A stretch of DNA of 43,076 bases. It comes from an uncultured Planctomycetales bacterium. GTDB taxonomy: Bacteria > Omnitrophota > Gorgyraeia > Zapsychrales > JANLHA01. Of the stretch, positions 3,401 through 33,400 are shown one piece after another. The notes beneath the pieces are model-generated. The model was not told where the DNA came from. It saw nothing but the letters and a program-made list of their open reading frames with translations, and did not search any database. Both the position numbers and the translations under genes were made by a program. The stretch covers positions 1 to 43,076 of the forward strand of contig CAZWOH010000002.1 of assembly GCA_964635405.1 (NCBI GenBank). Direction: 5' to 3'. The first letter of the stretch is position 1. The number at the start of each line of letters is the position of its first letter.

Positions 3401-6400
3401 GGGTAATAATTCTCAGGAAGGGCTTTATGGACTTATAACGGCCGGCAATAAATTTATTTATGGCCCCGATGGTTTGGAAGTTGGACCTGCAGTGGTGACC
3501 AATGCCATTTATCGTCAGGCGGGTGTCAATACACAAGAGGCAAATGCAGCGCTTTATTATCAGGCTTACCGCGAAGGCCGTATTTCCAGCTTGCCTCCGA
3601 TTGCTTGGACTTTGGCTAAGGATATGGAAAAAAGAACGCATGCGACATTAACGCAAGAACAATTTGCGCGTGTGCTTATTTCTGCCGGCCTTATCGCTGA
3701 TACACGAGATGCCAATGCTAAGGGTAAGGCGCTAAGTCAAGAAGTGCGCGATTTGATTGATCCACATGTGGTTGATTTGATTGAGACAAAGTACCTTAAT
3801 AATGTCAGCAATCTATTTGAGAGAATTAAGATTGCTATTGGTATTCCAGGGCAAGTAGCTGACGGTGATTTGCTTGCTTCTGCGCAAAAATATAGCCAAG
3901 AAAACGATAAGCCGGTTGTGACCCTGCAGCTTTTCCCCAAGCAAGAGTCTGATGTTCGACAAGGAACCTATTTAGTTGTACGAAATGATAAAGAACAAGA
4001 AGTTTTAGTTGTTTCTGCGAATCGCCATGATCCACTTGGCGTTGTTCCTGCCGCGGGGATTATCGATCAAAATAAGGGTAAAGTTTTCACGGCATTTTTA
4101 GTGATTGATTCAAAGGATTTAGTGTCTGCTTTGATGGCTAAGAATCTCGCAGAAACACCGTTAGCTCAAAGTTTATCGGATATGTACCAGCGTGTTGCCG
4201 AAAAAATGGGCTTTAAGCCCGGCGAGGCTATCATTATGTTGCCGCAGCATGTCGGGTTTGAAAAATTTGCCCAAGCGCTTCAAGGCGAGAAGACAATTGA
4301 AGTCAAAGACAAGGAAGAACTTGAGCCTAAAGAGAAAATTAAACCCGGCGAAGAAGTTAAAAACGGGGAAAAAGAGACTCCAGCGATTGAAAAATCGTTT
4401 AGCCTTAACGATATTATTAAGGGGAATAAATTTGATTCCTGGAGAAGCGTTTATTTAAATATTGACGCTTTTGAAGTGATAAGAATGACATTAGGAAACC
4501 TTGGATTGCCGTTGCGCAATAATACATGGGAAGAATTCCAACGTACTATTTCCGTTTTTGATACAGATAAATCGCTTTCTTTTAAAGAAACTCTTGGAAA
4601 AATAATTAAGTTGGATTCGGACCGCATCGATAGCGAAAAACAAATCGCGAAGTTTAAGGATGTTGACAACAATCAATATGCCAAGAAGTTGTTTGAGCAG
4701 AAGAATCTTCAATATCAGTTGCAGGACGCGAGAGATTTAGCGATTGCGGCAGAAACCAGCAGTTGGGAGAGATTTGTTTTGTGGGTAGGGGAGCTCTTTA
4801 ATACAGCAGAGAGCCAGTTTAGAAATGAATTAAAGAATACTCAAAAAACAATAATAAATCTTGAGCGCACACAAGATGCTCTAAAGATAGCTCTTGCTGC
4901 TAATGTTTCCGTCGAAAATATTCGTAATCTGGGTGCTGAGCATTCTTGGTTTGTTGCGCAAGTTGAGGGCATTAATGTTCTTGAGCCTGCTGGCTATCAA
5001 AGACTTAAATCTACTTTGACTCAACGAACTATCCGAGGGAGCATCTTTATTTTAGATATTGATGAAGATGCCCGGGCAAGCATTATAACGTTGTTAAGCC
5101 ATCAAAACACCGTTGACGATAATTTGTACGCCTTGTTGGATCCTTCAAAGAAGACTGCTGCTAAACCTGCACTTTTAAATGGCTTGCGCTTAGCCATGGT
5201 AAATGCTGCTCAGCAAGAAGAAAAATTATGGAATAGTAATTCATCATTAGCTACGACCATAGCAAAACAAAAAATGCTTGCGGCGAGTGTTAACGCGAAT
5301 GCGATGAGTGTTCATGATTATTTTAATGCTTTGACAAAGAATTCCGATCTTCCGGCTGAGAAATTTGTCGATATGAAAAAGACGGCTTTAGAAAGAATCA
5401 GCAAGACGATAAAAGAACTTAACCTTTCTTCTCAGATGCAGATTGAAGAAACTACTTTTGTTTTAGCTGATATTTATACGAAATTATCTAAGGAATATCA
5501 GAAAAATTTGATGGTCCTTCAAAGCAGTAAAGAAGCTTTATTAAATAGTAATAATGACGAAGAGAAGAAAAATCTGCAGGCCCGCATAACGGGTACGCAC
5601 CAACAATTAGATACAATCGCGCAAGACTTAAAGTTGTTAAATAAATTTAAGAATGAATTAGCCAAGACAAATGTTTATGTTGCAGAAGATATTCTTGGTG
5701 CGCAAGAATTGTACGAATCGGTTGCACAACCGGCCTTGACTGTTTTACTCGATTATGATGCTGGGAAAGTTAGCTTTGCGGATGTCCGCTCAGTATTCTC
5801 AGTGATCAATGCGAAAATCGAATTATTAAATATTAAACATGAAATATTTATTACTAGAAATAAGATCGACAATTTGGAAAAAACGCCAAGCCTCGAGGAA
5901 GCAAATGTTCAAAATCCGAGTTTGTCTAACGCTCGCAATGAAGTTAGAAAGGCAGAAGCTGATGTGGCACGTACACATCTTGCCTGGTTGGAGGCGATAG
6001 TAGCTCAAACAAGTCATGGAAATATCGCTGACCAAAAAGAGCAATCTGCTCGCGTCTCTGATCCAAAAGCAGAAAAATTGTCAGCAGCTCCTTCGTCCCG
6101 CGCTGATGGGGCTGACAGTGCTTATTATGGTGTTGTTAACAGTAATGGTGAGCTTAAAGAAGCAGCAAAAATATTAAAAGACGTCTGGGCTGGCAAGGAC
6201 TCAGAACTTTTGGTTCGCGGCTTAACGTATTCAAAGGTTGTCGGGTCAGATTACAGGAACGGGTTTGATTGGGACAAAAATATTGGCGATATCCAAAAGT
6301 TAAAAGATATGGGTGTTAAAACGATTCGGACGTATTATCCGATCACCTCCGAGCGTTTTCTCAATGAATTAGCCAATCAGGGCATCAAGGCGATTATCGG

Positions 6401-9400
6401 CATTCCTAATTATGATGATCGTTATAATCCAGGCCCGGACATTAGCCGCGGCGGATATAAACATTATATTGAGAAATATAAAAATCATCCTGCAGTTTTA
6501 ATGTGGGAATTTGGGAATGAATACAATTACCATCCGCAATGGTTTAATGGGAATGTTGATCAATGGTATTCCATTTTGGAAAATGCCGCTGGTAATGCAA
6601 AACGCATTGATCCGATGCACAAAGTTTCGACAGCCCACGGTGAAGTTCCTTTAGCTGGTGTTTTACGTCAGGTTCCGTCGGTCGATGTTTGGGGGCTTAA
6701 TGTTTATCGTCCAAATGTTTCGGATGTATTCAGCGATTGGAAAAAAGCGGTTACAGAATCTGCAGCGCGCAAAGACCTGCAATTCTATTTTTCTGAAACA
6801 GGGGTTGATTCATTTGATTGGGCTGAAAGAAAAGAAGATCAGGGTAAGCAAGCTCGTCACATGAAAAATATTTGGAATCAGGTGCAGATGCAAGCTAAGA
6901 CTCAGCCTGGTGTTTTCTTAGGGGTAACATTTATGACTTTTGCGGATGAAAGTTATAAATCGGAAAAATCAGATGACAAAACTGCTTTAGAAAAAACCTC
7001 TTTGTCAGCAAACCGCAACGGACAAAGCAATCGTGAAGATGCGAATTTGGTTATTGCGCAAGAAGCGGTTAGAAATGCGCAGGCGGATGTTGTTCGTGCG
7101 CAGCAGACCAACAAGCAAATAATTCAAGCCCTAGCTGCATTAGAACAAGCTCAAAAACAAGTTCTATTGATTTATCAAAAACGGTTGGATTTAGTAACTG
7201 CTGTCGAAAAGGCACAGAAAGAAGTCCAATTGGCGTTTAACAATGGTGATTTAGCCGCCTACACGAAAGCCACTTTGACGCTCGCTATAAGCGCATATCA
7301 AGCTGGTTTTAGCAATGATCGCGATAAAGCCAATTTGCGTAAGCTACTTATTGAAGGAAGTATTCTTCCGATACTTAACGCACCGATGGTCATTATTGAG
7401 CAGCAGGACATTAAAGCGCTTAGAACGCAATTGCGTGATCAGTTAACTGAGCTTCTTCCGCGTTTATCAATTGACACTTTAATTAAACTTCAGAAAGCAC
7501 GTTCGAGTGAAGATATTCTCAAAGTCGTGATGCACGATTATTCTGGGCTTGATACGGCGACCAAACGGCTGATCGATGAAATTAATACCGTCTTTTATCG
7601 TCTCGAGGGCCGCAATAATATCGGGAATTCTGCTCCGCTTGATCGCAATGAAGCGCTTTTCTTGCCCGGACAAGGCGGAACATTTAGTGAATTAGACAAG
7701 CCGATTATTCCTTTGATTAATGGCGTTATAAAGAGCCGTTTCCCCGATGTTAATGTTCATGATTGGTGGACGAGATTTGCGATTGTCCAAATTCATATTG
7801 AAAGCAATGGTAATGCGTCAGCGGTCAGTTCAGCCAAAGCTCGCGGATTGACTCAGGTTACCGAACCAACATGGAATCGGACAGTGGATTACATGGTTGC
7901 TCAAGGAATTATTCCTAACCGTAATGGCTGGTCATTTGCTGATAATGCCGATAATCCGGTTAAGAATTATATGGTTGGGCATTCGTATCTTGCCATTATT
8001 ATTAAGGAAATTGATCGTAAGTTTGCTGGTAAAGTTTTGACCTTAAGTGAATTTACGAATGCCGTTTCAGCTGCTTACAATGCGGGCGAAAATTATAGCG
8101 CCGCTTTCTATTTAAAACCGACGATTGATGAAACTGTTAAATATGTAGCCAAGGCGGCACATCTTTTAAAACACATGACAACGGATGAAAACGGTCGTAT
8201 CGTTTCTCTGGATGAGGCGGGACGAAAGGTCTTTTTCACTCGAACACTGGCTGCTTTGCGGATCAAATCTGACAGCATTAATAATAAAGATTTTGATCAG
8301 CTTGCCGCCAAGTTCGACGGAACAACCCTTTCTACAGAAGATTCCAGCAATTATAAAATTAAGCCGCAAAGCAGCGATATCGGCCCGCTGCTCGAGATGA
8401 TCGTTCCGCAAAAGTCTGCGGTACGCGCAATCTTAAGCGGTATTGTTACTCAAGTTGCGACTACTCCTTATGGCCAGTATGTCAAAATTTCTTCGATGAT
8501 CAACGGACATCGCGTTGAGCAAATCTTTGCTTATATGGGTGGTGCTTTGAAAGCCGAAAAGGCCTTAGGCCAAGAAGTTAAGGCGGGTGCTTTAATTGGC
8601 ATGTCTGGTTTGCAACAAGGTGCTAATCGTTATCTTTTTGCCCTCAAGATCGACGGCAAAGCGGTTGATGTGATGAGCGTTAATGAAAAAGAAGACGGTT
8701 CTCTAAAAACGATTCGCACGATGGTCGCTAAAGCTGTGCAAGACAATTTTAACGCGCTTACCGGTCGCGCCACGATCAAAGTTATGACACCAGAAGAACG
8801 CGAAGACGCGATGAAAGAAGATTTGGCTAAGATACGTCAAGATGCAGAAGACAGGATGGCTGCTTTAGATTTATTGCGTAATCGCAATGATGCGGAGCGT
8901 CAAGAAGTAGCGCGCAGGAACGCTGCCGTGGATATGGTGCGCGCTATTGCGAATACTGCCCGAACTCATCCCGAAACGGCTTTACATGACATGGTCGAAG
9001 AATTAGCAAAACTTGATGCAACAAGCAATGGAAGACTAGGACACGGTGTTAGTATTCAACTGAGATTTAATCCGGCCGCTCTTGGCTTAAATGTTGGAAT
9101 TGGCCGGCAGGCTGTTTGGGGTGGATTGAATTTATCGCTTGTCGGTACCGGTGAATTCTTTACGCTGGCAGAAGTTGTCATGCAGACAAAGAGTCTTTTA
9201 GGTCCTCCTGCCCCGGGTGTTTCCTCTGCGCAGAGAACGCTTGGCATCTTGTTCTATGTGGATGCCTTAATGAGTGTTTACAATTCATTGGTGGAACGTT
9301 CGCTTAACTTAGAAGAATATGGCGGGATCGGAATGGATCAGGGCACCAATCCGCTCTTTGGACGCACCAAGATTATTGTCAGCCCAGAAATCAAAGGCAA

Positions 9401-12400
9401 TGAATATCAGATCACGAAGTCGGGCAGTGTTTTCATGCTCACGCTAACTGAACTTTACAAAGATTTTATCAAGCTCACCTTTGGCCAGATTCCGGGTGTT
9501 GGCGTGCTCTTTGGTGGCGATCAAGCGCCGCGCGTTCTGACGAAGACCAAAATGGACGCTTATTATCAGCCCGGTCAGCGCGAAATGAGATTTATGCTCG
9601 ATGCTTATAGTAATGATAAGAGTGATGTTCAGTTTGTTTCGTATCGCTGGAAGGCCGACGATAAGGGCTTCCCAGTTCCTTTACTCGATGGTCAGAAGCA
9701 AGAATGGTTTGTTACCTTGTATAAACGCTGGAAAGATGATTCCGGAAATATCCATCGTGAGGAGTATGGGACATTTATTCGTTTCTTAACTTTACCCGGT
9801 GAGAAAAAAGCGGTTACGGACGATTTCTTCGCGCTTCCGGCGAATCATGGTTATAAAATGGAGCCGGGACAAGAATATGTCTTTCCGTCGATGGCCTCTT
9901 TGCAAAGCATGCAGGATATGTATGATGTGCGCCGCGGTGTGGACAGCCAGACCGGCGAGGTAATTTTGGCTGGCGCATTTGATTACACAGGAAAGCTTAT
10001 TCGCAAATACTATAAAGCGGACGGTTTGCCCCAGACTTTACCGGGGAGCGGTTATGAAAAAGACGGCTTAACAACTTATTTCGGTCGCGCGATCGTTAAA
10101 AATATTCCTTATTTACCGGTGTTGACCAATGGTAAAGATAGAGAAGGAAAATATATTCATCCTATCGTGATATTTAGTCAAGAAGCGGCTAGACAGGCTT
10201 ATTGGCTTCATACTCAAGAACAGGATCCGAATGTGACGGCTCATATTGTGACCAATCGCGGACGCAGTATTCCGGTTACCGGTGATATTAGTAAGGTTGA
10301 GCAGGAAGTATTGCAATGGGAGTATGACAAAAATGGATTGGCCATTAAGCCGGATGTTACTTTTGAGCGTCTTAAGATTTTTGAACAGACCACCAAATCC
10401 GTCGTCAATGATCGTGGCAATAAGATCGGATTTAATTCAGAAGATTTCACCGTCAAAACCGCCGAAACGACACTTAAAGATATTAGCAGATTGAGCAAAC
10501 AGCCTATTGCTGCTGACATTTTGATTTCGGATCCGATGCTTACAATGAAGCAGCCGGTGCAGATTTATCAATTTAATGGTCAGCGGATTTTGGTGGTCAA
10601 TACCGATTTATTAAAAGAACAGGTTAAAGAAGCTCAAGTGCTTAATGATGTTCAATTAGATATTGCGGTTAGCAATATTAGTTCTTTGGCTGTCGATCGC
10701 AGTGCTTTTGAAGCGGCTGTTGTGCAGCAAAGCAGTACGCGTTTAGAACGCACGATGACGATGCCTCAGGGCATCAAACTTGTTAAAGATTCGCGTTTGC
10801 AGGCAGGAGAGTATGGTATTCTCGTCGAGAATACATCACAGAAACCGATTTTCATAGCCCATTTACCGGGACGTTCAGTATATATCTATACCATGGAAGA
10901 GTATCGCAAATTAGTCACGACCCTGCAGAAGCCCGGGCAAGACATTACGCTTGTTTGGAAGAATAAGGCTGGCGAGGTGGTCGGTAAACTTGAAATCGCT
11001 TCGTATGCGGGTAAACAACCGACCACTTTGATCGTCGACGGTATGGGGCTTCGTCCCGGTGAGATCGGCGTTGGGGAGTATGGCGCGAACTTCCCCGATA
11101 TTGCTAAGAAGATTAAAGAATCCGACGCATGGGCAGCCGTTGAATCACCCAATGGAGAGATTAAAGTTATTACTGATCCTAAGGATCTTCCGTCGACAGA
11201 AAACAAAATAGTGACGATTACGCCTAAAGAAGGCCCGGCTCCTGCAACTGTTGGCACAGATCATATCGCTTCCCAACAAAAGAATTTGCCTGCTGTGCTC
11301 AAACAACCGGATAATAGTACCAAGGTCGTCGGGGTTTTTGATCTTGGAAAGAAAGAAGACGGTAATCGTAAGGGCATAGGTGTTTCTATAAAATCTGGTT
11401 TGCCTAATCCTGAATTACGCAATGGCCAGCCAATGTATAACGATTTTGAAGCGATGAAACCGGAAGCTGGCGGATTAGAAGCAACGGAACTTAGCTATGA
11501 AATTTCTGTAGCAGTTTATCGAATCATTAGGACTGTCGACCAGAATGGCGATAGGGTTACGATCGGAGAAAAACTCATTGAGCATATGAACAAAGTCTTT
11601 AGCCAGCCGGGCGCGGCTGGCGTTGGCTTCTTCTTTGGCGGAAATCTGCCAGTAGCTTTGAGTCAAAAAGACTTTTCGTACGCTCAAGAAATACAATTTA
11701 TCGCGCCGGAAGTTTTGCGTGCCGCGGGCATCAGATACGACGGCAAAGGGTATTTGATTCGTGTTGAGCAAAACGGAAAAGAATTTACGCGCACCTTGCC
11801 CGGCAATGCCATGGTGATCTTGCCGCAAGATTTCAAACTTTTGGAAACGAATGTGGAAAGCCGCTATCCGGTTATTGTGCAGGCTAATGAGAAAACGATT
11901 GGAGAGAATTTAGTTTTCAATAATGGTGTTGGTGCTTTGCGCGCTCGCGGCGTAGGTTCTATCCCGTTGACCCGCGAAATGCTTAAAATGTTTACGGATA
12001 ATAATCCTTACAATGGCACGCTCTTACCGATTCCGACGTACACGTTTAATGAAAAGACCGGCGAAATGAACCAGAAGATGGTCGTCGTCAACTTCAAGGT
12101 TAACGGCGTTGATGTCAGTGGGGCTATGTTGGACTTAGGACGCGAAGGAATTGCTTATATGAAACAGTTGACTAAGACGACCTTTACATTGCCGCTCAAA
12201 GAAGGCAATGCGACTTTGGGGATGGAAGAATTAAATCGTCGAGCGTCGGAGTTTGGCGTCGAGTGGACTAAGGATAATCGTTTGTTAAGCATTCTTTCAA
12301 TGCCTGCCGAAAAAGCTAATCCTCAAGCACAAAGCTTTATTGATCTTGGTGGACGCAATCGTGTGGCTATTGGTCTTTCCGATGATTTTAAGACGATAGC

Positions 12401-15400
12401 CCAAGCGTATAAGAGCAATGGTCTTTATATCGTCAACGGTAAACTTGTCATCGCTTCGCAGTTGTCAGCGCTAGAGCGGGCGACTTTGAGTGCCCGTGAT
12501 CAGGCGATGATTCAAGTTGTTGGACCAACCATGCCGCTTTTTGGCCGCTTTATGACTCGCGGACAAATACAGGATTTAGCTAATCGTGCGCTTGCTCCGA
12601 TTGCCGGCAAGCATTTGCCTCTGCAGGCTACGGGTACAGATAGCAATGAGCTGTATCCGTACTATTATGATGCAAATTTAAATAATCGTTATGATGAAGA
12701 TGATCCTATTGTTTATGTTGCCAAAGATCAACAACCGACGGGCTTTGTGGCGCTTGAAGCTTTGTTTGTTGAGCCTTTTGTTCCTGCGACGGGAACGTCA
12801 TTACCTGCGGTTATGCCTTTAGCGCCATCGGGTTCTATGGGGTTGTTTAATGCCTTGCCGCTTTTAGGCAAAGCTGTTAGCGATGTGTTTCGTGCTTCTG
12901 TAGTAGAAGCCGCGGAAATTCCTGTGTCTGTTAAGCCTGTCGCAAAGTCCTATGGTTTGGTATATAACCCGGGTGTTGATTCCGGTATTTTGGAAGTCAA
13001 TGCTGCGGGCAAGAAATTTTTAAATTCCCTTGAAAAACAATATCAGGATAGTTTGGGTGTTGGACGCGCGAAAGATAAAGGCAGTGTTCGTATGACGCCA
13101 GAACTTTTAGCGCAGATTATTAATTTGTCTGCGGGTCGTATTGAAGTTACAGGTGAAGCTGTAGAGAGCGACCTTGGCCAAGCACGATGGCTGGGCGAGC
13201 AAGCGGTCTTTAAGCTTAAACTGACTCGTGATTTAGTCATCAATGGTGTGGTCGTTCTCCCGGCTGGTTCGATTTTAGAATCCGGCGTTCGCGCTAAAGA
13301 AATCTTTGATGCGATCGAAGCTGTTGCCAACATCAAGGGCGATCAGAGCAAACAAGACGTTTTAAAGAAATTACAATCGATCTTTAAGGGCAATGAACAG
13401 ATCGTCAAAGAATTTGTTGACCGTTATTACGGTGCGACGATCGCCCGCACGCCGCAGGGCACAGTCTTCGTCGAGAATAAAGATTTTGTCCGGTATTTTG
13501 ATTTAAATCATGGCGTCATTTATATCAAAGGCGAACCGGTCTTGCGCGACGGCAAGCCGGTTTGGGAAAACGGTCGTCAGGTCTTTAAACTTTTATCCAG
13601 CCGTGAAATTCGACTTTCCGACGGGACATTGATTCCAGCGGGCACGGTGTTGGAGACCGGCAGCGGCACTAATGAGCTTCTTAACTTATTAACAGCGGTC
13701 AGCGCAGGCTCAAAGTCAAAGGATTTCTTGCGTCAGGAAATAGTCAAGCGCCGTGAGACCTTTGGCATTGATAAACAGACAGCGCAAGAGTTTGTCGAAA
13801 AATATTACGGCGGAGTCATGGCTCGGGGTGTCACGCACACGGTCTTTTTGAGCGCCCGTGAAGCGGCGCAAGCCTTTATCAATTTAAAGATGGGCCGCAT
13901 TGCTATCAGTGGTCAACCGGTCATTATGGATGGTCGGCAGTTGCTTAAGAATGACAAGCCAGTGTATAAGCTTTTGACAGTCGGCGAAAAAGAAATTGCC
14001 GGCCGCGTGACCTTGGCAGGGAATACGGTTTTGGAGGTTGGCGTAGAATTTCAATCTTTGCTTGATCTTCTTGAGGGCACAGCAAATAGCGAGAAGAGTA
14101 AGGAAGAAATACTTGTGCAGTTGATGGAGCATGGTTCATTATTTGAAGAAAAGTCTTCTGGCCCCTGGGGCATGATTGGCTCAATCTTCTACGAGTCAAA
14201 CATCAAATCTTTCGTTAATCGTTTCTACGGTAATCCGCTTTTGCGTGTGTCTAGGGGAAATACTCAAGGAACATTCTTTATGACTGATGAGCAGTTCCGT
14301 CGCTGGATTAGTCTTACAGATGGCTTGATTGATATTAGTGTCGAACCGGTTCTCGTCAACGACCAAGAACTTTGGAAGAGTGGCAAGCAAGTCTTTAAGC
14401 TAACAACAAATAAAGAGATTAAAATTGCTCAAGGAGTAGTTATACCAATTGGAACAGTTGTGGAGATTGGACAAAAATCACGCTCAACAAAGATTCTAGA
14501 TTTGATGCTTATGGTTTCTGAGGGCGGAATGGAAGATGAATCTTTTAATAAAATTGCTTTAGAAAAAGAATTGATGGCTTACAAAGATGTTTTGGATACT
14601 AGCCGGGAACAGATTCATGAATTTATTAAACATTTTTACGGCAATCCGGTGTTGCGGACTAAATATGGAACGGTCTTCGTGCCTGCTGATATGGCTAAGA
14701 AGTTTATTAATTTTAAGAATGCATGGATCAATATTGCCTCTGAATCAGTCAAGAGAGACGGCAAGGATTTATGGGTTGAGGGGCATCAAGTCTTGCGCAT
14801 GATTACTCCGTTTGAGATCAAGCTGGGGGGTAAGGTTATTCCTGCTGGAACGGTTTTGGATGTTGCTCCCGGATCTAAATATGATGAATTGCTCAAAACT
14901 ATTCAGGCTGTAGGAAACGGTATAGCACGGGATTCTGATAAAGAGAAGGCGGATTTAAGTCTGAGGCTTTCGAAATTTAAAGATGAGTTGGGTGCTGATG
15001 AAGCTAAAATTAAACAGTTTGTTGAGAATTATTATGGTCATGGTTTTTTTCAGGTGAGTAATGGTGCCCAAGTTGGCACTTATTTAGTCAGTGAAGAAAA
15101 TTATCGTCAGCGGATTAATCCGGGCAACGGGTGGACTTATCTACATGGTGAACAGCTCGTCGAATCTGTAGATGCCCAGACGGGTATTAAAAAATATCGT
15201 CATGGCCCCGATGGAGAGGAGATTTATCTACTGCGCACTATTCATCCCATGGATGTGAATGGTGGCGACAAACTTCCTACGGGGGTTTTATATGAGCCAG
15301 GGATTAAGTCTTTGGCTGCAGAAGAATTAACAGCCCTGCGCAAGAAGGGCTTGGAATCTGGAATTTTCCATACTGATAAAGGTTCCAGAGTCGGTGATGC

Positions 15401-18400: not shown

Positions 18401-21400
18401 TGAAGACGCTGTTGTTAAGCAGGATGAGCTGTTAGTCGAAGTCTTAGAAACCCCGTGGCATCAGCAGACCAATGGTTTGTATGAAGAATCCAAAGCGTTA
18501 GCGGTCAGTCGGTATCTCTTACCTAATGATCCTTGGAATCGTTCTTTAGCCAAGAGAATGCCGTCCGGCGAAGTTGCTCTCGATCAATTAAATAAAGATC
18601 AAGGGAAATACGATCTCTCTCCCGGTCAGTACGTGACTACGCCGAATATTAAAGGTTTCTCATCGGAAGCTAATCTTTTGCGTCAAACAGAATTTATCGG
18701 TATGTTCGATGAAGATGGCGACGGAATAAAGGAGACAGCTCGCTACAAAGCTACCAAAGAGGCTATTGAGAAAACCCAATTCGTTATGATCGGATACAAC
18801 CTTAAGACAGGGATATATTATGAACAACGTCGATACGTTGATAAGACTTTGCGTGTGTATTATTTTGATGGGTTTCCGCTTTTTGTTAATTATATAGATA
18901 ATCCTTACGCGGATTATCCTAAAGAGTATCAGTTTAGTAGCTTAGAGAACAGAGTATATACCGATGAAAAAGGTGATGTTTATTATATCGTGATCGAGCA
19001 TTTGCAGACGCGCGATATTTTTGAGCGATCCAAGAATTGGATTTCTGGTGAGACCGTAGTTTTATTTAAAAATGGTAAGCGTGTTTATACTTCCGATCGG
19101 TTTAAGGGGCAGACTTCGCCGTATTTGACGACGTTTAGTTTAGAAGACGTATTGCGCAATTCTATGGTTGGTCAAGCTGTTAGCCCTAATGAGTTTAAAG
19201 AAATTATGGCCGCTGCCCGTAAAGGTAAGCTTTTAGAGTTTGATGTTGCAAAGCAAAATCCTGCTAAAGAGCCTTATGTGGGTGAAGGCACAGACAGTTG
19301 GACGAACTTTGCTTTGAAAGTTTTAGGGCCAGGATTATTGTGGGTAGTTGCTGCAATCTTTGGTATACCGGCGGTGTATTACGCTTTAATCGCTTTCGCA
19401 TTGTGGTTTTATCGTGTAGTGATGGGTAAACGTGGTCAGGTCCGGATTAATGATCCGATTTTGGATGATTTGACTGGCATGGGCTTTACTCCGGCTCAAG
19501 CTCAATTTATTATTCGCGACTGGAGCATTAATGGGGCGTTTAAAGGGCCGAAAGATTTTCGTCTGCGCATGGCGGGTGATCGTGTGTCTGAATTTAACCT
19601 TGCTAATTTACACATTGAGTCTTCTAGCCCCGAAGGCTGGGCTGTGAAACATATTATTAAGCGCTGGATTACCCGGACACGTTTTGCAGGTGCATTAAAA
19701 CACGCCGCACATTTTGATTATGGTTATACTCGTCGTGAAGGTGAAAAGTTCAATGGATTTAGCAAGGGTGATTTAATTAATTTAAGCAATGCTGCAAACA
19801 AGAGCGCTGCGGATTTTGCGCAAGCTTGGGGTGCCTTGTATCAGGTGTCGGCTGAGGAACAATCAGGTTTTGTATCGTTTACGACGATGGTGACAACTGC
19901 TGGATATATTTCTGAAGATGAGATTCGCAGTGTGGTTAACAGTAATTTTATTACTTCATTTGTAGGCAAGGTCAGTACTCGCCGCGCTGCTCAGATTATT
20001 TTGCGTAAGATTTTTGCGATAGTCCGCGATTCTCAAAATTATAACGAAGCCCTTGAGGCGCGAGTCGATGAACTTATGAAATCGACCGGAATGGATAAAG
20101 TTTTTTCGGATCAGGATTTTACTTTAAAATCTACCTTTTTGAAAAATATTCAGAATGCTCGCCTCTTGCCCGCCGGGTTAAGCTTGCACGACTTTGATAT
20201 TACATCTAAGAATGGTCTCCTTGCTTATAGCTGGGACGATTTGCACAAAAGCCCGCCGTCGGATCGTCAAATGGTTAATGCTTTAGTCTCAATTGAGAAG
20301 TTGTTTATTATGCAGATGGTGTTGCAGAGATCGCTTTTTGGTTTGACGGGTCAAGGTCGTCTTGAGGAATATCTTTGGACTAAACATTTATATCCGATTT
20401 TGAAGAGTAGCGATGTAGAAGACTATATGGATGTTCTTCCAATTATTCGATTTTTTAAAGAGGTTTTTCATCAACTGCTACACAATGAAGTTCACAAGAA
20501 GTTAGACGAAGTTCGCGATCCTAAGGGCAAGATCGTTTATATGCAGCAGATATTTAATGAAGAATTGCTTAATGATGCTTTTCGTTATTTATTGGGCGTC
20601 AAGGATCCAAGTCTTTCGGATGAGACGTGGATTTTAAGCGATAAAGTAATAAGTGAGATTCAACCTTTGGCGCAAGAGATCAATCGTTATTTCGATGCTC
20701 ATGTTCAATTTTTCCGTCAAAATAATGGCTTAGCTGAGTTTTCAGCAGAAAGTGTTAAAGAGCTTTTACAAGACGAAAGTGTCAAAAAGATTATTAATCC
20801 TGATGAAAAGTTGTTGACAAAGGACGAACTTGACCAACTTGGTGAAGGCGATAAATCGGTTTCTAGGAGTTTGGTTGAGAAAATTATTATTATTCGTGCA
20901 AGTATGCGTTTGGAGCCGATTCTTAAGGCTTTTGTCAATGTTGTGGATAAGGAAATCAAAATGCCGGTGGCTAAGAATCGGTTGGCTGTTTGGATGATTC
21001 ATTTGGTCCCAGTTATAAAGATGGTCTTTAGTTCCAAATGGCGCAAGAGAATTTTCTCCTCCGGTGGTCCGTATAATCAGACAGCCAGAGATTTCTTGCG
21101 TCGGTTTAATCATTATATTTTATTTGGATCAGTCACGGGATTGTTTGTTTATTTGAGTATGCATGCAGTGGGATATTTTAGTCATGTTGGTGTTTCTGCT
21201 TCTATTACATTGCCGACAGCTATGTTGGGGGTCCCAATATTTGTTCTTTTAAGTTTGCTCTTTTTTGGGGTAGTTTTAAAGGCAATTCGCAAGAATTTTG
21301 ATAAAAAGAGAAACGATATTACAAGCGGCACAAAGACTCCCGCACAGAAGGCCGAGCTTTTAGTGAAAGCGAATAACACCTTCAAGCTTTGGTTACAAAT

Positions 21401-24400
21401 CTTTTATGGTGGGCAATTGGTTATTTTAGCTGTTCTCTTTATTTTGGGAATTAGCGGAGTAGCAGTGAGTGAGATAATTCCTGTTTCTATTGTCCTTGCT
21501 ATTCCGGATGCAATTAAACAGATTTTGTTGTTTATTCCGTATTTGATTTTTATTGCGACTTGGCGTTTGAGTTTTTATGCGGCTAACTATTTCTTTATGG
21601 GCATTGCAACCTGGGGATCGCATATTGTTAATAACACGTATGAGCTTAATAACAGAAACAAGCCGGATCAGATTAAAACGGCCTTAAAGAAATTGTTGAC
21701 CGATCCGACGCCAGCGTTATTAACTCGCGAATCTGGTCAAAAAATGCCATCGCGTGGGCATGAACGCGTTGAGGCTTTCAAGATCGTGTTGAGGGAATTA
21801 GGTGGTGATGAGGATTATTACTATTTGATTAGCAAAGAAACAATTGTGGATTTTGAGGAAGGCAAAATTGATATCAATGTTATGGCCGACAGGATTGTCG
21901 ATGAGTTAAGTGGAAAGCTTTATGATCAAAATGATTTAGTAGGTCAGGATGCTAAGACCCAAAATGCCATTATTTCTGCTAAGCGTGAGTGGAGCTTGTT
22001 GCGTTTAATTGAATGGATTAATGATCAATATCGCCTTGATCGAGGGTTAGAGCCGATGAATTGGGACGAAGTTCTGCCCGTAAGTCAGATTATGGAAGCG
22101 GCTGCCGAGGATCTCTTTTATACACCCGAGCAACTTTTGACGTACGACCCTACTGATAAAGACGTTTCTTACATGACCCACCGTTTAGGGATGTTGGCTC
22201 AAGCAAGGACAGAACTCTTTTTGTTGATGATAAAGCGTTTATTGCCAAGTTTGACTATACAAAAAACAAGAGAATTAGTAGAAAAAGATTTTTCGACTGA
22301 AGCTTTAAAACCGATTAAGGCGAGTTTTGATAGATACTTAAGCCAGTTTAACGAAAATGATGAGGCATTTAGAGATTCAGTACGAAAAGAATTGCAAAAG
22401 ATGATCACAGATGGCCAATATTTACCTCTTGCGATTAGTCAAGAAAACAAAGCCGTGCTTTTAAACGCTAAAAAATCATTGGTATCTTTGATGGTTTATT
22501 GGAATATTTGGCCAGAGATTCAACGCTGGGCTACTTTCCAACTCCCAACGATGTGGGCCAATGCTCGTTCTCAGAAACGTACTTTAACGAAATTATATAG
22601 TTATTACGCCCAGATGTTTGGTATGCCTAACGATAAAAGTACTCATGAAGAAGTTGAGAAAAAAATCCGTGTGATTAATAGGCATTTGGGTAGTTTTGCT
22701 GCTATGGATGCAGCATTGGGTGGTAAGCTTCGTGAAGTTATCGATGCTTTAGAGCGGACACATTATAAGGAAACATTTTATGTGGATGAAACAGGGAAAG
22801 TATATGGGTTTGAAGACGCAGTTGAATTCCTTCGTCAAAAGAATTCTGTTTGGGGAGAGATGATGGATCTTGTTAAAAATGATCGAGTTTTTCCAGCCTT
22901 TCATAAAGGTGATGTTCGTGGGAAAGGGGAGATAACCGAGATTTATCATTCAGAAAAATGGAATACCAAGACTGTGGCTATGCCCTATTTTATCGGTCCA
23001 GTTTTGTTGACCGTTGATGCTGATCATCGTGCGAGTTTGGCTGGACAGAATGGGTTTGCAGCTGCTTTGATGGATTTCTTTTATCAGCCCGGTATGGCCG
23101 CTGCGATTCCTGTGGTGCATCAGGATCTTACTAAAGGTGTTGGCCCCTTAGGTGACGTCGTCCCTGTTGGTGAAAATGCATTTTATTTTCATACTCAGCA
23201 GGGCAAAATGTTGTTTGGCGGCTTAGGGGCTTATGGAAAATTCTTTGAGCGCGTCACGCCGATGCGTTGGTCAGAAGGCATCACAGATTCTTACGTTGCT
23301 GAGGATATCGAAACCGTTTTGCGTTATCGAGGGTTTGGTTATACGGTTGGGCGTACTTCATATATCAAAACTGAAAAGGGATGGCCGAATCAGTTTACGC
23401 AGGCTCGTAATCCGACCCGAAAGTGGTCGTATGATTCTGTAGAATCGGTTACTGGCCGCACGCCGCTTAAGCTTTTATTATCACCGTATGTTGATTGGCC
23501 GTATCGTATTAATAATTTTATTCTTGATGGTTTTGGATTTTATTTTAAGAAGCCGATAGTCAATCGCTACATTAAGTGGTTGGTGGTTTTTTCTTTAATC
23601 TTGGACTGGAATTTGTTTAGCGGCCTTGCTCTGGGGCTGTGGGTAGGAGCGTTGTTGTTATCGCAAGCGATTAGTTTTGGGTTGTTATTCTATAATAATT
23701 ATGATCAAGCTTTAGGTTTTTGGCGTGGGTTGTGGCTGACATTTAAAATGGTTTCTGGCAAGATGTATTGGTTTTATTTGTATATGCTTAAAACTTATGA
23801 AGAGACGATTGGTCTTTTGGCGGCAAACCGGTTAGGGAGATTTCTTTCGACCGCAGGGAAGGCAGGAAACATTTTGCGTACCCCGGATTGGCGCGAACTT
23901 TACAAGATTACCTTTTTCTCGCAAAAAGCGGGAGCTCTATGGCTCTTGGTTTCGTTAGTGGCTATTGGCTTTCATCCGTTTAAGAGTGTTTTATGGATAT
24001 TGACCTTACTCTTTCCTTTGGCAGCTTTGATTGCCCCGTATGTTTTTAATCCAGCTCGCCCAGAGGCTAACATACAAAAGAGAATATCGATGCTTGCAGC
24101 TATCCCAGTTTTAGGAATAATTTCTGGCGCAATCCTGTGGGCTGGGTCTTGGGTTCTTGGGCTTGCATGGGTGGAGTTGCTTATTCTATATGTTAGAGTT
24201 AACTTAAAAAATCAAGCGATCACGGTGAATTTCAATAAAGATCGTTGGGAAAATGTTTGGCATATTCTTTTGGGCTTTTTCTGGGGATTAACGGATGTCA
24301 TTATGGCGGCGCATTATAAATTATCTCGTCTCTTCCCTTGGAATCGTAGAGAGGAAGATCGTTTGCAGGCATATATTTGGGAGTATGGCAAGCAAGTTCA

Positions 24401-27400
24401 ACCAAAGCTCTCGAGTGCTATGCAAAAAGAAACTTTGGAAAACTTGAAGTTGTTTGCTCAATACCCAACTCATAATCGCATGATGTATACGCGCGTTCCA
24501 CTTCCGATTGTTTTTCACTCTATTGATATTTTCACTTGGGTGCATGAAGGCTTTGTAAATCGTTTTAAGACCGCAAGTGACAATGAGGAAAAAACTACAG
24601 CCGCCGCAAAGGCCTACGAGCCAATCCTTCAAATCTGGAAGACTTCAGTCAAGCCTCAAAATCAAGCAGTTGATCAATATAAATATAAGTCAGCGCAGAG
24701 CCCTGATGTTGTCGCTTATGTCAAAACTCTCAAGGATAGAGTTATGTATTTGAAGGTTTATTTTGCAGATCTCGCTTTAGCGAAAGAAATGGATAAGAAT
24801 TTTCAGAGAAATATCAATGTTTATCTCCAAGTTCTTAAAGATATTGAGGACGCTTTGCAACAAAAAACGGGGCAATCAGATTCCTTATATCTACGACGGT
24901 TAGAGGAAATTGATTGGGAATTGACAGAGATGTCCTTCTTCCCGCATAAGCCTGTTAAACGTGCTAGCTTAAAGAGCGCAGCTGGGTGGAACACCCTTAA
25001 CGGGATTAAAGTCAATTTAGGTAATGTTGTCAGTAAGATTTGGTTCTCTGTAAAATCAGTTATGAGATTTTCTCGCGATCGCGTTTTACATATGATTGGT
25101 GTCGAGGATACATTTATTGCATTGTTTGTTTATGCTTTCATGGTTCCAATGGCAATTTTGACTGGCGTTTTATCTATTTTAAAGCGGATTTTGGTTGGCT
25201 TAGATCGCGTTTTTCTCAGAGGATTTGCAAGAAAGAAAGTGATAAACATTTGGCATAAACAAGAAGCCACTGGTGCGGCACTTTCTGGTTATCCGGCTTT
25301 GCCAATGTCGAAGCGTATGGCTTTAAATGAAAAACATACGCTTTATAATTTTGGTAAAAGTTTAGGTGGTGAGAAATCTATTAACGAAACGGATGAAAGT
25401 AAGTCGCTGGATTTGATACGTTTACTTCTGGACAATGATAAACTTGAAGAATTTATTAAGTCATCAGCAAACAAAACTTCTACCGCCTCCAGCTCAGCGA
25501 TTGTGGACTTTAAAGAACTCGAAACAGTCCAATGGTCTAAAGAGCATCAACCTAAATCTTCTAGTTCGACACTGGACATAAAAACTTTCCCAATCCTTGT
25601 TTCTGCTATTGCGGGAATGCAGGATAAAAATATTTTGGTGACGGTGACATTGAAAGACGCAACAACTGGCACAGTTGAGATTAAGTTTGATTCTCCGTCA
25701 GAAGAAGACGTTTTAGAAGCTTTACAATATGCTTTTGATCAGCAAAGACAGAACGAAAAAGATATGAAAAATTTAGTGGCTTGGTTCCCAGCGCCTGAGA
25801 AAAAGCTTTTTGGCATGATGACTAAAGCGCCTGTGAGAACTTTTACTCTTCGATTCCATGGCATGGCAGGCAACATCGCTTACGTAAAAGATAATACCAT
25901 TTATGTTTCTCATCATGCTCTACGTGCGCCACCAGTCTGGGAATTTAGCATGGATTACAAACAAGCCCGCCGTAGATTCCTTAACATTATCTTTTCTGAT
26001 GAAATTGAACACCTTCTGTATCCAAACCAAACTCAAGCCACGACTCATCAGCATCTGATTGCCCGCTTGGGAAATAATCAAGACGATGTCATGGCATTGT
26101 ATTATTTCGTGAGCGACATAAATTTTGTTGTTAACAATGAAGATTTGCAGGGTCTTTTAGAAAAAACATCGGCACAAAGATTAGCTAATTATTTGGCTGG
26201 GCAAGGTTTGACTGTATCACAGTTAAAAGCCGGTGGAAAAAATATCAATGATTTAGTCGTTGCCGGCAACGATGATTTAAATACATTAAGAGCTGTTGTC
26301 GAGTTATTTAGCAATGGCGTTGGGCAGAGAATTATTATTCTTGGTGGCTTCGGTCGGTTGACGATATCTTTAGTTAGACGAGCTGTCAAAGCTGGGTATA
26401 GTATCCAATTATCAGCAACAGAACAAATTAATAGTTCAAATTTTGCAGAGTTTGAAAAGCGGGTCATGCGTGCTCCACGAGCCAATGATCTATTAAAAAT
26501 CAGCGAAGCTCAGATTATCAAGCAGATCATGTTTCAAATTATTTCTAAGAATTATCCTGCAGTAATTCAAAGATTCCAAGAGCCAGGCCGTATTGTCATC
26601 GAAGAGTCTTCGACAAATACTCTTGATAATTATAAAAAGTATCATGACTTTCTCGTTGAGGATGCGCGTTTTAAGACACAAACTCAACAAAATCAGCCGT
26701 GGACTATTGTCAACATTAGCCACCCGTTGTTAGAATTTCGTACCCAAGCAACCTATCAAAAGGTTTTTGAGTCACTCATTGCCCAAGGAAAAATCCGCGG
26801 GACATCTTTAGCGCAAGAATATCAAGTTAATGGTTTGGAACGCTCGGTAAGAGAAAGACTTATTGACGAGGTGTTTAGAATTATTATTTATTCACAGCAT
26901 GAGGATATCCGTATTTTATGTGGTGAAAAGAAAGGTTTAAACGCAATTGATGCAGAATATTTTCTGGTGGCAGTGGAGTTATTTAATGGACTCAATGAAG
27001 ATTATGAAAGAAATTTATTAGCTAATCAGCTTGTCGCAGCGTGGGTGACATATCCAGCAAAAGGGCGTTTGTCCGAAGAACAAATGCGCGCAGGTTTATC
27101 ACCTGCTACGTTGGAATTTTTTGAGACGATAGTTGCTTTCTTTGATACAAAAGATCTCTTGAATAAACAACAGGAATCTACCGTCGAAAGAATAGGTCCT
27201 AAAAGTTTTATGGATACCCCAGTTAATGGATCATTTGTTGAAACAATCCCCGTTGACCGGCTAACGAAAGAGTTGGAGGACAGGACAAGGGCTATGCGTT
27301 CACCTGAAAAACTAACAGCTGAGCTGGTTGGGCGTGTCTTAAAGGCTTATAGCAATAATACAGTTTTGGCTGAATGGCATCTTGCCACCTATTTGGTTCA

Positions 27401-30400: not shown

Positions 30401-33400
30401 TATTGTTATCGGTATTCATGTTAACTTGCGTTTTGTATTCTTTGATGAGGAAGAATTGCATGAGGAAATGATCCGTCGGTACATGAAAGATAATAGAGGA
30501 TTAACTATAGCTTTTAAAATCTTGGATCAGCTCAATCAATATAATGTTGTACTTAACAAGAATTTTTTGGAGTCTTTCCAAAGACTTCGTCGGATGCTTC
30601 CACAAGGACAGGAATTAGTAATTTTTTGTCCGAACGTATCGTTACCTAATAACCCAGCTGTGGATTATATGGGAGTTATTTTTCAAGCAAAGTTAGGGCA
30701 TAATTTGCGTGGTGAAAGACAAGTTCCTGTTAAACAACCGATCACTGGTAATGGTTTTAATGGGGATTTAGAGCAAAGGGATCGTTTAGCCGAGACTTTG
30801 TTTGATGCCGTGTCAAGGATTTTGGTCGGCGGGGAAACTCCTTTGGTGTTGTTTGATTTGGATGATACGTTAAGCCATGGGTTTGGCGGACCGCTGCATG
30901 AAGGAATTCTTGACTTGATGCAGCAGTTAGCAGGGACGCATGTTGTTTTTGGTATTAATACGGGTGCGGATTTGCCTTGGGTAAGTCACCGCGTGTTAGA
31001 TTTAACTCAAGAAAAGTTTATTATTCCTGTTCTTATCTTGAGTTCCGGACGTCAAGTATTGATCTGGGATAATCAACGACAAGCTTATCGAGTCTATGAG
31101 GTGGATAAAAAAACCAATAAAGGAAAAAGTACACTTGCGCTCATCAGCAAATTAGGTATTAAAAAACAAAGTGTGATTTATGTAGCTGATTTCCCAGGAT
31201 CGGAGGATAAAAAACAAGCTGGGATTGATGACAGTATGCTTAATCGAGGGTTTGGTCTCATTGTTTCTGTTGGGCCGCGTCATGATTTTAATGTAGAAGA
31301 AAACACAGTGTTAATACAGACCCAAAACTACGGAATAGTAGGGCCGCAGGCAACAGTCGTTTTGATGCAAGTTCTGTCGGATATGTTTCATAGGCCTATG
31401 CCAGCAGTTAAATTGAAGAACGTCGCAAGCAATCTTTCAGCGAGCGGCCGCTTAATTTTTTCTCCAGCGGCTATGTTAGGGGATGAAATAAAAATAAGTA
31501 TCAGCAACGATTCGGATACTATCACAGTGCCGGGTAAGGGTAATCTATCGTTACAAATTACTGATGGTTCCCGCATGGCTTATGCAGGGGTTGAGCGCAA
31601 GGATCCTCAAACCGGTCAGGTCACGTGGGAAAAAATCTATGCGATTCCGATGATTCGTGTTAATGGACATCGTGAATTAGCGATTCGCGATCCACAAATC
31701 AATGTCTGTTTGTTTTTGTCTTACGGATCTTCGGTTGGGCTTCAAAAGCCAAGCTGGCATTCTCGTAGACCTTTGAAGATCGCTCGTGTTGATGAAGTTG
31801 CGAGTAGATATAATTATCAATTTGACAGCTTTACATCTTTTGAAAATTTGTTGTTATCCCTAAATGTTATTCGAGAGATTATGGAAGGTTTATCGAATTT
31901 TGATGGGATTGAACTTATTCAAGGCCGTAGCCGAAGTGTAGTTTTTCGTACGGCCCGAGGAGATTTGATTATAAAAATGTATAGTGCAAAAGATTCTGGT
32001 GATTCTAGATTCGCACGGGATTTGTTATTCGTAACTACTTATAATGCTGCTCAAAATGCTCATCGGCCAACGGGGTATTCAAGTCAAGATCGCTTTTTTG
32101 TCGTGGAAGTGGATACAACTGCTTTAACCTTAGCTGAGTGGATGGCTTCTTTAAGCGATAAAGATCAGTTAAATAAGGCAGTTTTAGCTATAGCTAGCGG
32201 CTTAAGGGATTTTGGTTCTATTAGTTTTTATGAATTTGGAATGATTACTAGCAATGGGCCTAATCCTGACAGTAATGATTTTGTGCAGATGGATGAAACC
32301 CCTCAAACTTACTTCCACTTTGAACGAGAGCTTATACATAGGATTTTAAAAGAGTTAGGAAACATTGGCTTAAAAATGTCTAACCCTTCGCTTTTGGATG
32401 ATTGGCAACAAAGGATATCCACCCTTAATTATTTTGTTTTGAACCACGGAGATTGGAGTCCTTGGAACATTCTTGTTGATCAGGATGGTCGTCTTGTGAC
32501 CGGAATAGATGGTGAAGATATCTTGTCAGCCCCGCCAGAGAGGGATATCGCAATATCATTGATACGTTTGTTTGATACCTCTTTTGATATGCCATTAGTC
32601 AGGGAAAATCTTAATCGATTATGTGAGTCATTATTGGAAGTTTATAATGAAAATCGTCGAATAAATTTTGATGTTCTGCCGTTTTTTCTTGCTTTGGCGG
32701 CCTTGCGAAATGCCAGAGGACAGGGGATTGATTTTCGAAATCAAATACGCGCAAAGTTAATGCTGAGTTTGGCAGAATATTTCCTTAGCTTTTCGACGGT
32801 TGATCGGCGCAATGTTTTTCCTGTAACAGAAGCTGTATTTAGAGTCGCAATATTTGATTCAAATGCCCATGTCCAAATAGCCGGGTCATTTAATAATTGG
32901 AAACCTTCTTCTGTGGATTGGCAACCCGTTACAACTAATACAGGAACATTGGTCGCCTTGGAAGCACGGTTATCTTTAGTCGCAGGAGAGTATGCTTATA
33001 AATTTATTATCGATGGCAGATGGATTGCAGATTCCAGCGCAGGCGAAATAAAAAAAGGCAATATGATTTTAAGATTACCGTTTCCTGCAATAGAAAACGA
33101 GCAGCATCTTGAGACAGATACCGCCTCCAGCGGGGTTCACTATAGGCCAGTTAATTGGGGCATTTTGGTCCGCGATATCCGCGTTATCGGGTTTGATTTG
33201 GACGACACGTTGTATAACTCGAAAATCCTTATGCAGGAGTTTAGGAATTGTATTTTTTATTTTCTGGCTGAACGTTTAAAGACAAATTATACCGATGCCA
33301 AAGAACATTATTATGAAACAAAGAAAAAAGTCGCACAAAAATCAGGAGGACAGCCGCTTGCCATTGAAGTTCTTTATGAACTTGGAGTATCTCTTCAAGA

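Follow-up and report, generated by a model that had tools for sequence, protein, structure and literature searches.

A putative bacterial glycosyltransferase module nearest to the fungal glucan synthases Fks1 and Fks2, embedded in a giant open reading frame of Omnitrophota

The DNA analysed here, referred to throughout as the window, is the 43,076-nucleotide (nt) stretch at positions 1 to 43,076 of contig CAZWOH010000002.1 (forward strand; assembly GCA_964635405.1), derived from an uncultured Planctomycetales bacterium that GTDB places in the Omnitrophota. The whole window is a single stop-free open reading frame (ORF) on the + strand in frame 3 (nt 3-43076; 14,358 codons), with 595-1,348 stops in each of the other five frames and a GC skew above zero in all 2-kb bins (0.06-0.23). 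Given that the ORF spans the window and is closed at neither end, the gene must be longer than 43 kb. A membrane-embedded synthase forms one module within this giant gene (Table 1). We would put at roughly 70% the probability that a complete processive glycosyltransferase (GT) module, integrated in the membrane and probably active, is encoded at nt ~20900-24500. It would have the cellulose-synthase-like fold and belong to an unannotated bacterial family that, among characterised enzymes, is nearest to Fks1/Fks2 of family GT48 and, by extension, to plant callose synthases.

The module comprises two helical membrane clusters, recognised by Kyte-Doolittle hydropathy and in an AlphaFold model, which flank a soluble region of ~640 amino acids (aa). 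This arrangement of membrane cluster, soluble domain and membrane cluster had been described in an earlier reading made from the letters alone (hereafter the sequence-only reading). The layout was retained, but its helix counts of 5-6 and 7-8 were revised to ~4 and ~7, and its span of nt 21110-24320 proved slightly short of the conserved module. All strings that it quoted from the sequence are present where it placed them. In the AlphaFold model the N-terminal helices occupy model residues 18-52, 62-98, 103-140 and 159-199. In the first part of the GT domain N7340, R7344, D7346 and E7369 are invariant in 17 close relatives, E7369 being the counterpart of Fks1 E851. The WANARSQKRTLTKLYSYY helix sits in a stretch of ~250-300 aa between strand beta1 and the DxD strand that is common to the family and to GT48. 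When the giant protein was searched by hmmsearch with the family core profile A1 (defined below), one copy was matched (aa 7498-8166), and no second copy of the module was found across the window.

Table 1. Positions of the synthase module, its parts and the other features discussed. Conservation is counted over the sequences of alignment A1; coordinates of operon loci refer to those loci.
Feature	Position (nt)	Strand	Residues (aa)	Remarks
Whole conserved synthase module	20898..24500	+	~6966-8166	Collinear phmmer matches to relatives
N-terminal transmembrane cluster	21084..21629	+	7028-7209	~4 long helices; ends in conserved IPYLIF..TWRLSFYA.NY helix (A3 consensus)
First part of cytosolic GT domain	21630..22550	+	7210-7516	N7340..R7344.D7346, strand beta1, then E7369
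WANARSQKRTLTKLYSYY helix	22554..22607	+	7518-7535	Counterpart of Fks1 stretch from residue 940 (HMMER)
K7652	22956..22958	+	7652	Fks1 UDP-Glc-binding K1082 (HMMER alignment); K 29/29
VDADH	23013-23027	+	7671-7675	
D7672-A-D7674 (DxD)	23016..23024	+	7672-7674	Fks1 D1102-A-N1104 position; D7672 = D1102, D 29/29; D7674 = N1104, D 28/29; beta strand precedes in model
PLGDVVPVGENAFYF		+	7715-7729	String quoted in the sequence-only reading
LGDVVPVGEN ... GGLGAYGK segment	23148..23240	+		E7724 = Fks1 E1173, 30/30; Y7744-G7745 = Y1193-G1194, 30/30; K7746 = H1195, K 29/30
AEDIETVLRYRG	23298-23333	+	7766-7777	
E7767-D7768 catalytic ED motif	23301..23306	+	7767-7768	Fks1 E1221-D1222, 30/30; BcsA TED; opposite NEDIYAG
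K7792, R7806-K7807-W7808, E7814	23376..23444	+	7792-7814	HMMER alignment: K7792 = Fks1 K1246, 24/30; K7807 = K1261, K 27/30 + 3 R; W7808 = I1262, W 25/30 + 4 Y + 1 F; E7814 = E1268, 28/30
TRKW	23415-23426	+	7805-7808	
GFGFYF	23529-23546	+	7843-7848	
C-terminal transmembrane cluster	23535..24326	+	7845-8108	~7 helices; second HMMER stretch, hhalign P=2e-7, model helices
RFLSTAGKAGN..R	23838-23879	+		In C-terminal cluster; counterpart of Fks1 ARYISTGRGFATSR
APYVFNP	24033-24053	+		In C-terminal cluster; counterpart of Fks1 APFVFNP
GH158-like (clan GH-A) glycoside hydrolase module	6225..6716	+	~2075-2238	N2172-E2173 'NE' motif; phmmer vs PDB
SLT lytic transglycosylase domain	7791-8093		2597-2697	E=1.3e-10
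Peptidase_M23 match	8400-8669		2800-2889	E=8.9e-6, slightly below Pfam threshold
APH-like kinase			~10809-10874	
AMPK1_CBM/CBM48			10955-11012	
HAD_2 (beta-phosphoglucomutase-like)			11064-11243	E=2e-18
Weak GH77			12021-12082	
DUF1152			13002-13158	
6-phosphogluconolactonase/GlcN6P-isomerase-like			14181-14302	
Operon with stand-alone relative, locus L017	2587-10850			
Operon with stand-alone relative, locus L018	448-6090			
Operon with stand-alone relative, locus L019	4251-9932			
Operon with stand-alone relative, locus L020	785-6466			

Searching 1.84 billion cluster representatives exhaustively with phmmer returned 65 relatives (48 at E<1e-10, 31 at E<1e-30), the majority of which are fragments of other very long proteins of up to 7,525 aa. 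The core common to the relatives corresponds to window aa 7499-8022, and close relatives also match aa ~6966-7425. Profiles were built from three alignments: A1, a core alignment of 30 sequences whose members are 19-47% identical to the window; A3, restricted to close relatives (the window plus 16 loci); and A4, with 14 sequences covering the full 1,116-aa module. Against all PDB sequences, the A1 profile matched Fks1 and Fks2/GSC2 best in HMMER (E=3e-20, 75.8 bits). The match is made up of two collinear parts, with profile positions 13-319 aligned to Fks1 940-1273 and 395-517 to 1376-1493. The next-best family was BcsA (E=2.7e-8, 36 bits), which was matched over profile positions 127-322 only (~195 residues). 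The A1 alignment pairs the WAN.R.Q helix with its Fks1 counterpart (WAS.R.QTL), GEN with LGDVAAGKEQ, and AEDI with NEDIYAG, and then runs on ungapped, with KGW....F...RKW...E....R opposite KGRDLGF...TKIG...E....R. The A4 profile covers Fks1 755-1271 in a single stretch (E=1.2e-10) and adds the first strand of the GT-A fold, in which EAERRISFF...TVLTPHYAE is paired with AKREWSLLRLIEWIN...VLPVSQIMEAAAE (Fks1 755-940); against BcsA it matches the catalytic core only (E=1e-6). Taken together, the collinear match to Fks1 spans residues 755-1273 and 1376-1496, and takes in an EA.RR../TP.Y.E-type first strand as well as the membrane motifs ARYISTGRGF and APFVFNP. The resemblance of individual strings to Fks1 that the sequence-only reading had noted was borne out at the level of the family, since HMMER pairs those strings at E=3e-20; the GFGFYF string falls beyond the aligned part, and its resemblance is a tentative one.

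Profile-profile comparison gave the same picture. In hhalign, A4 and A1 reached Fks1 with 96.8-97.5% probability (P=2e-10 and 8e-12), and A3 did so with P=1.9e-4 (385 columns) and, for the membrane region, with P=1.7e-4, each alignment keeping the correct register; reversed Fks1 controls gave P=0.4-0.7. Pfam scans of the individual relatives identified PF02364 (Glucan_synthase) in 7 of the 30. One of these, a 2,179-aa protein from a JGI metagenome (P0043), exceeds the gathering score (44.8 vs 37.2 bits), and sub-threshold scores were recorded for P0025 (32.8 bits), P0046 (22.1), P0047 (20.3) and P0045 (17.4). The sub-threshold PF02364 matches of the other distant members cover different, collinear parts of the model (4-160, 25-151, 274-318, 333-511 and 611-683 of 819). 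Searched singly against PDB with phmmer, P0043 and P0047 matched neither Fks nor BcsA. As P0043 passes the Pfam threshold, bacterial entries may already sit unremarked in CAZy or InterPro.

Residue roles in Fks1 are known from structure and mutagenesis (PMC10499315; PMC12715860), and were transferred to the family through the A1 HMMER alignment, counted over 30 sequences (Table 1). Common to both are K1082, which binds uridine diphosphate glucose (UDP-Glc; PMC12715860; PMC10499315), D1102, E1173, Y1193-G1194, E1221-D1222, K1246, K1261 and E1268. The conservation of donor, catalytic and acceptor residues argues for an enzyme that is probably active. The family departs from Fks1 in having W for I1262, K for H1195 and W or L at the position of R1248, and in its DxD motif, in place of which Fks1 carries a metal-independent DAN (PMC10499315). 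Alongside DxD and ED, the family has x-x-R-K-W at the position of QxxRW, and the distance from ED to the tryptophan is 41 residues, as for W383 of BcsA QRGRW, when calculated from the match coordinates of A1 and BcsA. With DxD and a QxxRW-like K-W kept, the family is, to judge from its motifs, a GT48-like bacterial sister family with GT2-type features and not a typical GT48 member, and it seems to stand between GT2 and GT48.

The AlphaFold model computed with alignment A4 (predicted local distance difference test, pLDDT, 70.9; predicted template modelling score, pTM, 0.72) shows strands ahead of E7369 and D7672, as expected of a GT-A fold. Foldseek against PDB ranked Fks2/Fks1 in the top three places (9wzs, 9wzv and 9wzu; E=5e-10 to 4e-9, ~990 aligned columns), with Fks2 9wzs as the best match (E=4.9e-10, template modelling score 0.43 when query-normalised, 990 columns). 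Identity to Fks is only 12-13%. BcsA (4p00) ranked fourth (E=4.9e-8, 494 columns), followed by plant CesA, hyaluronan synthases and chitin synthases. Fks1 and Fks2 (PDB 7XE4, 8JZN, 9WZS) likewise carry a GT-A domain inserted between two helix bundles with a cellulose-synthase-like channel, and the beta1-to-DxD stretch measures ~300 aa in the family and 251 aa in Fks1. By itself the modelled structure would not decide between GT48 and GT2, yet it agrees with the ranking by sequence. Profile, hhalign, Pfam on relatives and Foldseek all give a GT48 signal, so the module did not resolve into an ordinary bacterial GT2 synthase lacking such a signal, nor into a region without any GT match.

The module also differs from Fks1 in several respects. 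The module of the window is bacterial and lies within a polypeptide of >14,000 aa, and stand-alone relatives measure 643-949 aa against ~1,900 aa for Fks1. No FKS1_dom1 was detected, there are ~11 membrane helices where Fks1 has 17, and a Rho1 partner would not be expected. BcsA (GT2; PDB 4HG6, 4P00) is also a processive GT-A synthase with its own channel, is bacterial, shares DxD, (T)ED and, to judge from match coordinates, the tryptophan spacing, and is the second-best match by structure and sequence. However, its match is confined to ~195 residues of the catalytic core, neither a PilZ domain nor a BcsB partner was detected here, and the beta1-to-DxD stretch and C-terminal motifs of the family match Fks1 and not BcsA.

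Almost all relatives are unannotated parts of further giant proteins encoded in metagenome-assembled genomes (MAGs) of Omnitrophota and Elusimicrobiota. For the ten that were looked up, every recorded name was 'hypothetical protein' and the source was a MAG of one of these two phyla. Two of the proteins (P0025, MBV9079826.1; P0040, MBV9079720.1) come from an Elusimicrobiota MAG, and the family is thus not confined to Omnitrophota. Scanning a single genome of each GTDB species, with the narrower alignment A2 as query, yielded 16 loci, all of them in MAGs; the labels are Candidatus Omnitrophota/Omnitrophica or uncultured Planctomycetales/Planctomycetia, and in a single case Desulfonema. At most loci the frame of the module is open for >1,300 aa upstream and >1,500 aa downstream. 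At three loci (L007, L012 and L015) this frame opens 531-1,116 aa before the catalytic core, and at two (L009 and L010) it ends ~750 aa past the point where the core starts. A position near the end of a gene, and not only deep within a giant ORF, is thus open to the module, with assembly errors or frameshifts being possible at these sites.

Stand-alone relatives of 949 aa (P0067) and 643 aa (P0070, MBU0693078.1) were observed in a conserved same-strand operon (Table 1), in the order TolC-like OEP, a protein of 356-444 aa, a B12-binding radical S-adenosylmethionine (SAM) enzyme, 1-4 small ORFs and the synthase. This gene content suggests that a polymer is exported across the envelope and that one enzyme of the system modifies it. 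In P0043 the synthase module is fused to B12-binding and Radical_SAM domains that closely match OxsB (PDB 5ul2, E=1e-44), a cobalamin-dependent radical SAM enzyme of oxetanocin synthesis, and this fusion reinforces the association of synthase and radical SAM enzyme seen in the operon.

A glycoside hydrolase (GH) module of clan GH-A lies far upstream in the giant ORF (Table 1). Its best PDB matches by phmmer are to GH158 (9oro, E=1e-7; 6pal, E=7.5e-7), and Pfam recognised only a GH2_C TIM barrel at 20 bits. GH158 enzymes act on beta-1,3-glucans (PMC7157763; PMC13195107). The sequence-only reading had labelled this region GH17/GH5-like; a clan GH-A hydrolase module is indeed present, with GH158 replacing that label as the best match, and a GH158-like module remains compatible with the beta-1,3-glucan product that the reading had put forward as one hypothesis. 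The same reading had drawn a parallel with the cyclic beta-glucan synthase NdvB, which joins a synthase and a GH17 (clan GH-A) hydrolase-type domain in one polypeptide and which, like the curdlan synthase CrdS, is a GT2 bacterial membrane enzyme making beta-1,3-glucan. The parallel extends to a synthase and a clan GH-A module in one polypeptide, but no GH17 match was obtained and the GH158-like module stands ~5,000 aa upstream of the synthase. CrdS and NdvB further differ in being GT2 enzymes, and no curated GT2 or NCBIfam model for them matches the window; the comparison with them is one of families. When aa 2075-2238 of the giant protein were compared with all 65 relatives, which are mostly fragments, no match was found. 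At one operon locus (L018, 9562-11217) a 551-aa clan GH-A protein is encoded 3.5 kb downstream of the synthase, beyond toxin-antitoxin genes; it matches PDB 9fz9 (E=2e-62), gives weak GH158 (6pal) and GH72 signals and Pfam GH2_C, and showed no similarity to the GH region of the window in BLASTP.

On the basis of the homology, fold, catalytic-residue conservation and gene context that the data show, a mechanism can be proposed by comparison with Fks1 and BcsA. Lying between the helix bundles, the GT-A domain (aa ~7210-7840) would face the cytoplasm, where K7652 and D7672-x-D7674 would bind a UDP-sugar, UDP-glucose being the likeliest. Since a DxD motif stands where Fks1 has DAN, donor binding would probably involve a divalent cation. 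E7767-D7768, on the finger helix, would act as the catalytic base in chain extension, and K7807-W7808 would hold the acceptor end. The growing chain may then be exported via a channel formed by the C-terminal helices, which bear the GT48 motifs (K/R)(F/Y)I.T.GKG and APF.FNP. By analogy, a beta-glucan is the likeliest product, and a beta-1,3 linkage is favoured given that all characterised GT48 enzymes make beta-1,3-glucan (PMC3797821; PMC12715860) and that the same polypeptide carries a GH158-like module. The synthase and the GH158-like module may cooperate, a link that is circumstantial.

Several results weigh against this interpretation. Queried as a single sequence (the translation of nt 20943-24575; 1,211 aa), the window region gave no GT2 or GT48 match in Pfam and NCBIfam scans at E<=10, and phmmer against the full set of PDB sequences produced nothing above noise. 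When the window was aligned with Fks1 755-1273 and 1376-1496 by the Smith-Waterman method, the scores were not significant (z=1.5 and z=2.7 against 200 shuffles), although the alignments fell in the right register. PF14288 (FKS1_dom1) is absent from the 1,211-aa region and from the entire 14,358-aa translation, and the A3 HMMER profile reached neither Fks1 nor BcsA at E<=1, which makes the GT48 link transitive. DxD and K-W are GT2-type features, and the margin of Fks over BcsA in Foldseek is only ~100-fold in E-value with modest template modelling scores. As regards the product, linkage specificity is not readable from sequence, and the GH158-like match spans part of the barrel only, ~5,000 aa from the synthase. 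That module lies amid SLT and M23 domains in a stretch nearly without hydrophobic segments, and may accordingly serve prey digestion.

Other single-sequence results agree on how divergent the window copy is. It stays below the PF02364 gathering score (37.2 bits), with no match even at E<=10, and PF13632, PF13641 and PF00535 do not match it either. A word-indexed protein homologue search with the window region returned nothing; with profile A1 it returned three already-known fragments and one GT2 at 3.8e-4. AlphaFold from the single sequence was unusable (pLDDT 37.7). The window copy is evidently too divergent to be detected alone, its predicted link to GT48 requires intermediate sequences, and pairwise resemblance to Fks1 is not establishable from the window sequence by itself.

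A rival explanation is an ordinary, very divergent bacterial GT2 synthase of the cellulose, chitin, curdlan or hyaluronan type, whose resemblance to Fks1 would reflect the fold common to GT2 and GT48. In its favour are DxD, ED and a QxxRW-like K-W at what match coordinates indicate is BcsA spacing, the fourth place of BcsA in Foldseek and the PF13632 (Glyco_trans_2_3) matches obtained in 8/30 relatives, two of them just over the threshold (P0047 and P0064; 28.4 and 27.9 vs 27 bits). We consider this explanation improbable, and it was rejected because Fks1 scores twice the bits of BcsA over a longer alignment (~630 vs ~195 residues), and because Fks1 alone is matched by the WAS.R.QTL region and by the membrane motifs of the C-terminal cluster. 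Furthermore, PF02364 matches are found at model positions 4-160 and 611-683 of 819, which lie beyond the catalytic core, and NCBIfam recognises no bacterial synthase family. A catalytically dead relic, with no role beyond anchoring the giant protein in the membrane or acting as its scaffold, is far less credible still. Giant proteins do evolve fast, with many highly divergent domains (10.1101/2023.11.21.568195), and the window copy escapes all curated models. Yet donor, catalytic and acceptor residues are invariant or nearly so in 30 sequences of 19-47% identity, a sign that the active site is under purifying selection, and for this reason the idea of a dead anchor was rejected.

A stronger competitor, though one to which we give clearly less weight than to a beta-1,3-glucan synthase, is a GT48-like synthase with some other product, for example a heteropolymer, a beta-glucan of another kind, or a polymer on which the radical SAM enzyme of the operons acts afterwards. 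Identity to Fks is only 12-13%, the putative metal-binding DxD is unlike DAN, W or L replaces R1248, and the operons of stand-alone relatives also encode a TolC-like outer membrane factor and an OxsB-like B12 radical SAM enzyme, an arrangement that, to our knowledge, no known beta-1,3-glucan system resembles. Set against these are the uniform product of the characterised GT48 enzymes, the match of acceptor-side E7724, K7792, K7807 and E7814 to Fks1, and the presence of a beta-1,3-glucanase-type module in the same polypeptide. The reading of the module as a probably active, GT48-like synthase of beta-glucan is therefore preferred.

The rest of the window accords with descriptions of giant Omnitrophota proteins (10.1101/2023.11.21.568195; 10.64898/2026.06.07.730766), for which an ORF above 10,000 aa, many membrane helices and cell-wall-degrading domains were taken as the marks. 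The window has an ORF of >14,000 codons, many membrane helices, cell-wall-degrading (SLT, M23) and sugar-metabolism domains, and related loci in Omnitrophota MAGs. The SLT domain and the M23 match fall within aa ~1050-6440, a stretch nearly without hydrophobic segments, and look like a peptidoglycan-degrading pair as in the reported proteins. The C-terminal third of the ORF (nt ~32427-42908) contains a run of sugar-phosphate and alpha-glucan-type domains (Table 1), which might feed the synthase; no UDP-glucose pyrophosphorylase was detected. A SecA_DEAD domain is reported for most giant Omnitrophota genes, and neither SecA_DEAD nor TSP3 domains were detected within the window, which covers only part of the gene.

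In the main texts and one supplementary file of the giant-protein preprints (10.1101/2023.11.21.568195; 10.64898/2026.06.07.730766), glucan synthase, GT48 and processive glycosyltransferase are not mentioned. Within an incomplete literature collection, papers citing PF02364 concern eukaryotes only, and no paper was found that treats GT48 and Omnitrophota together. GT48 is discussed only for eukaryotes in the literature searched, none of which gives a bacterial origin, and the looked-up members of the present family are unannotated and appear to be bacterial relatives of a class regarded as eukaryotic. It is conceivable, if doubtful, that the Omnitrophota/Elusimicrobiota family is a surviving bacterial lineage from which eukaryotic GT48 arose. 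Under that tentative reading, the family would combine the GT48-specific beta1-to-DxD region and channel motifs with an ancestral GT2 DxD and QxxRW-type tryptophan. An old transfer in the opposite direction, from eukaryotes to bacteria, could instead have taken place. With a bacterial family that is nearer to Fks1 than to any GT2 and yet carries motifs of GT2 type, phylogeny can directly test how beta-1,3-glucan synthesis arose in eukaryotes.

Fks1 is the target of echinocandins and ibrexafungerp. The small stand-alone members (643-949 aa) could offer simpler systems for its mechanism and, should the ancestral reading be true, would be tractable bacterial models of the echinocandin target. For the Omnitrophota themselves, the predicted synthase would add a biosynthetic, polymer-exporting activity to giant proteins that have hitherto been discussed for attachment and cell-wall degradation.

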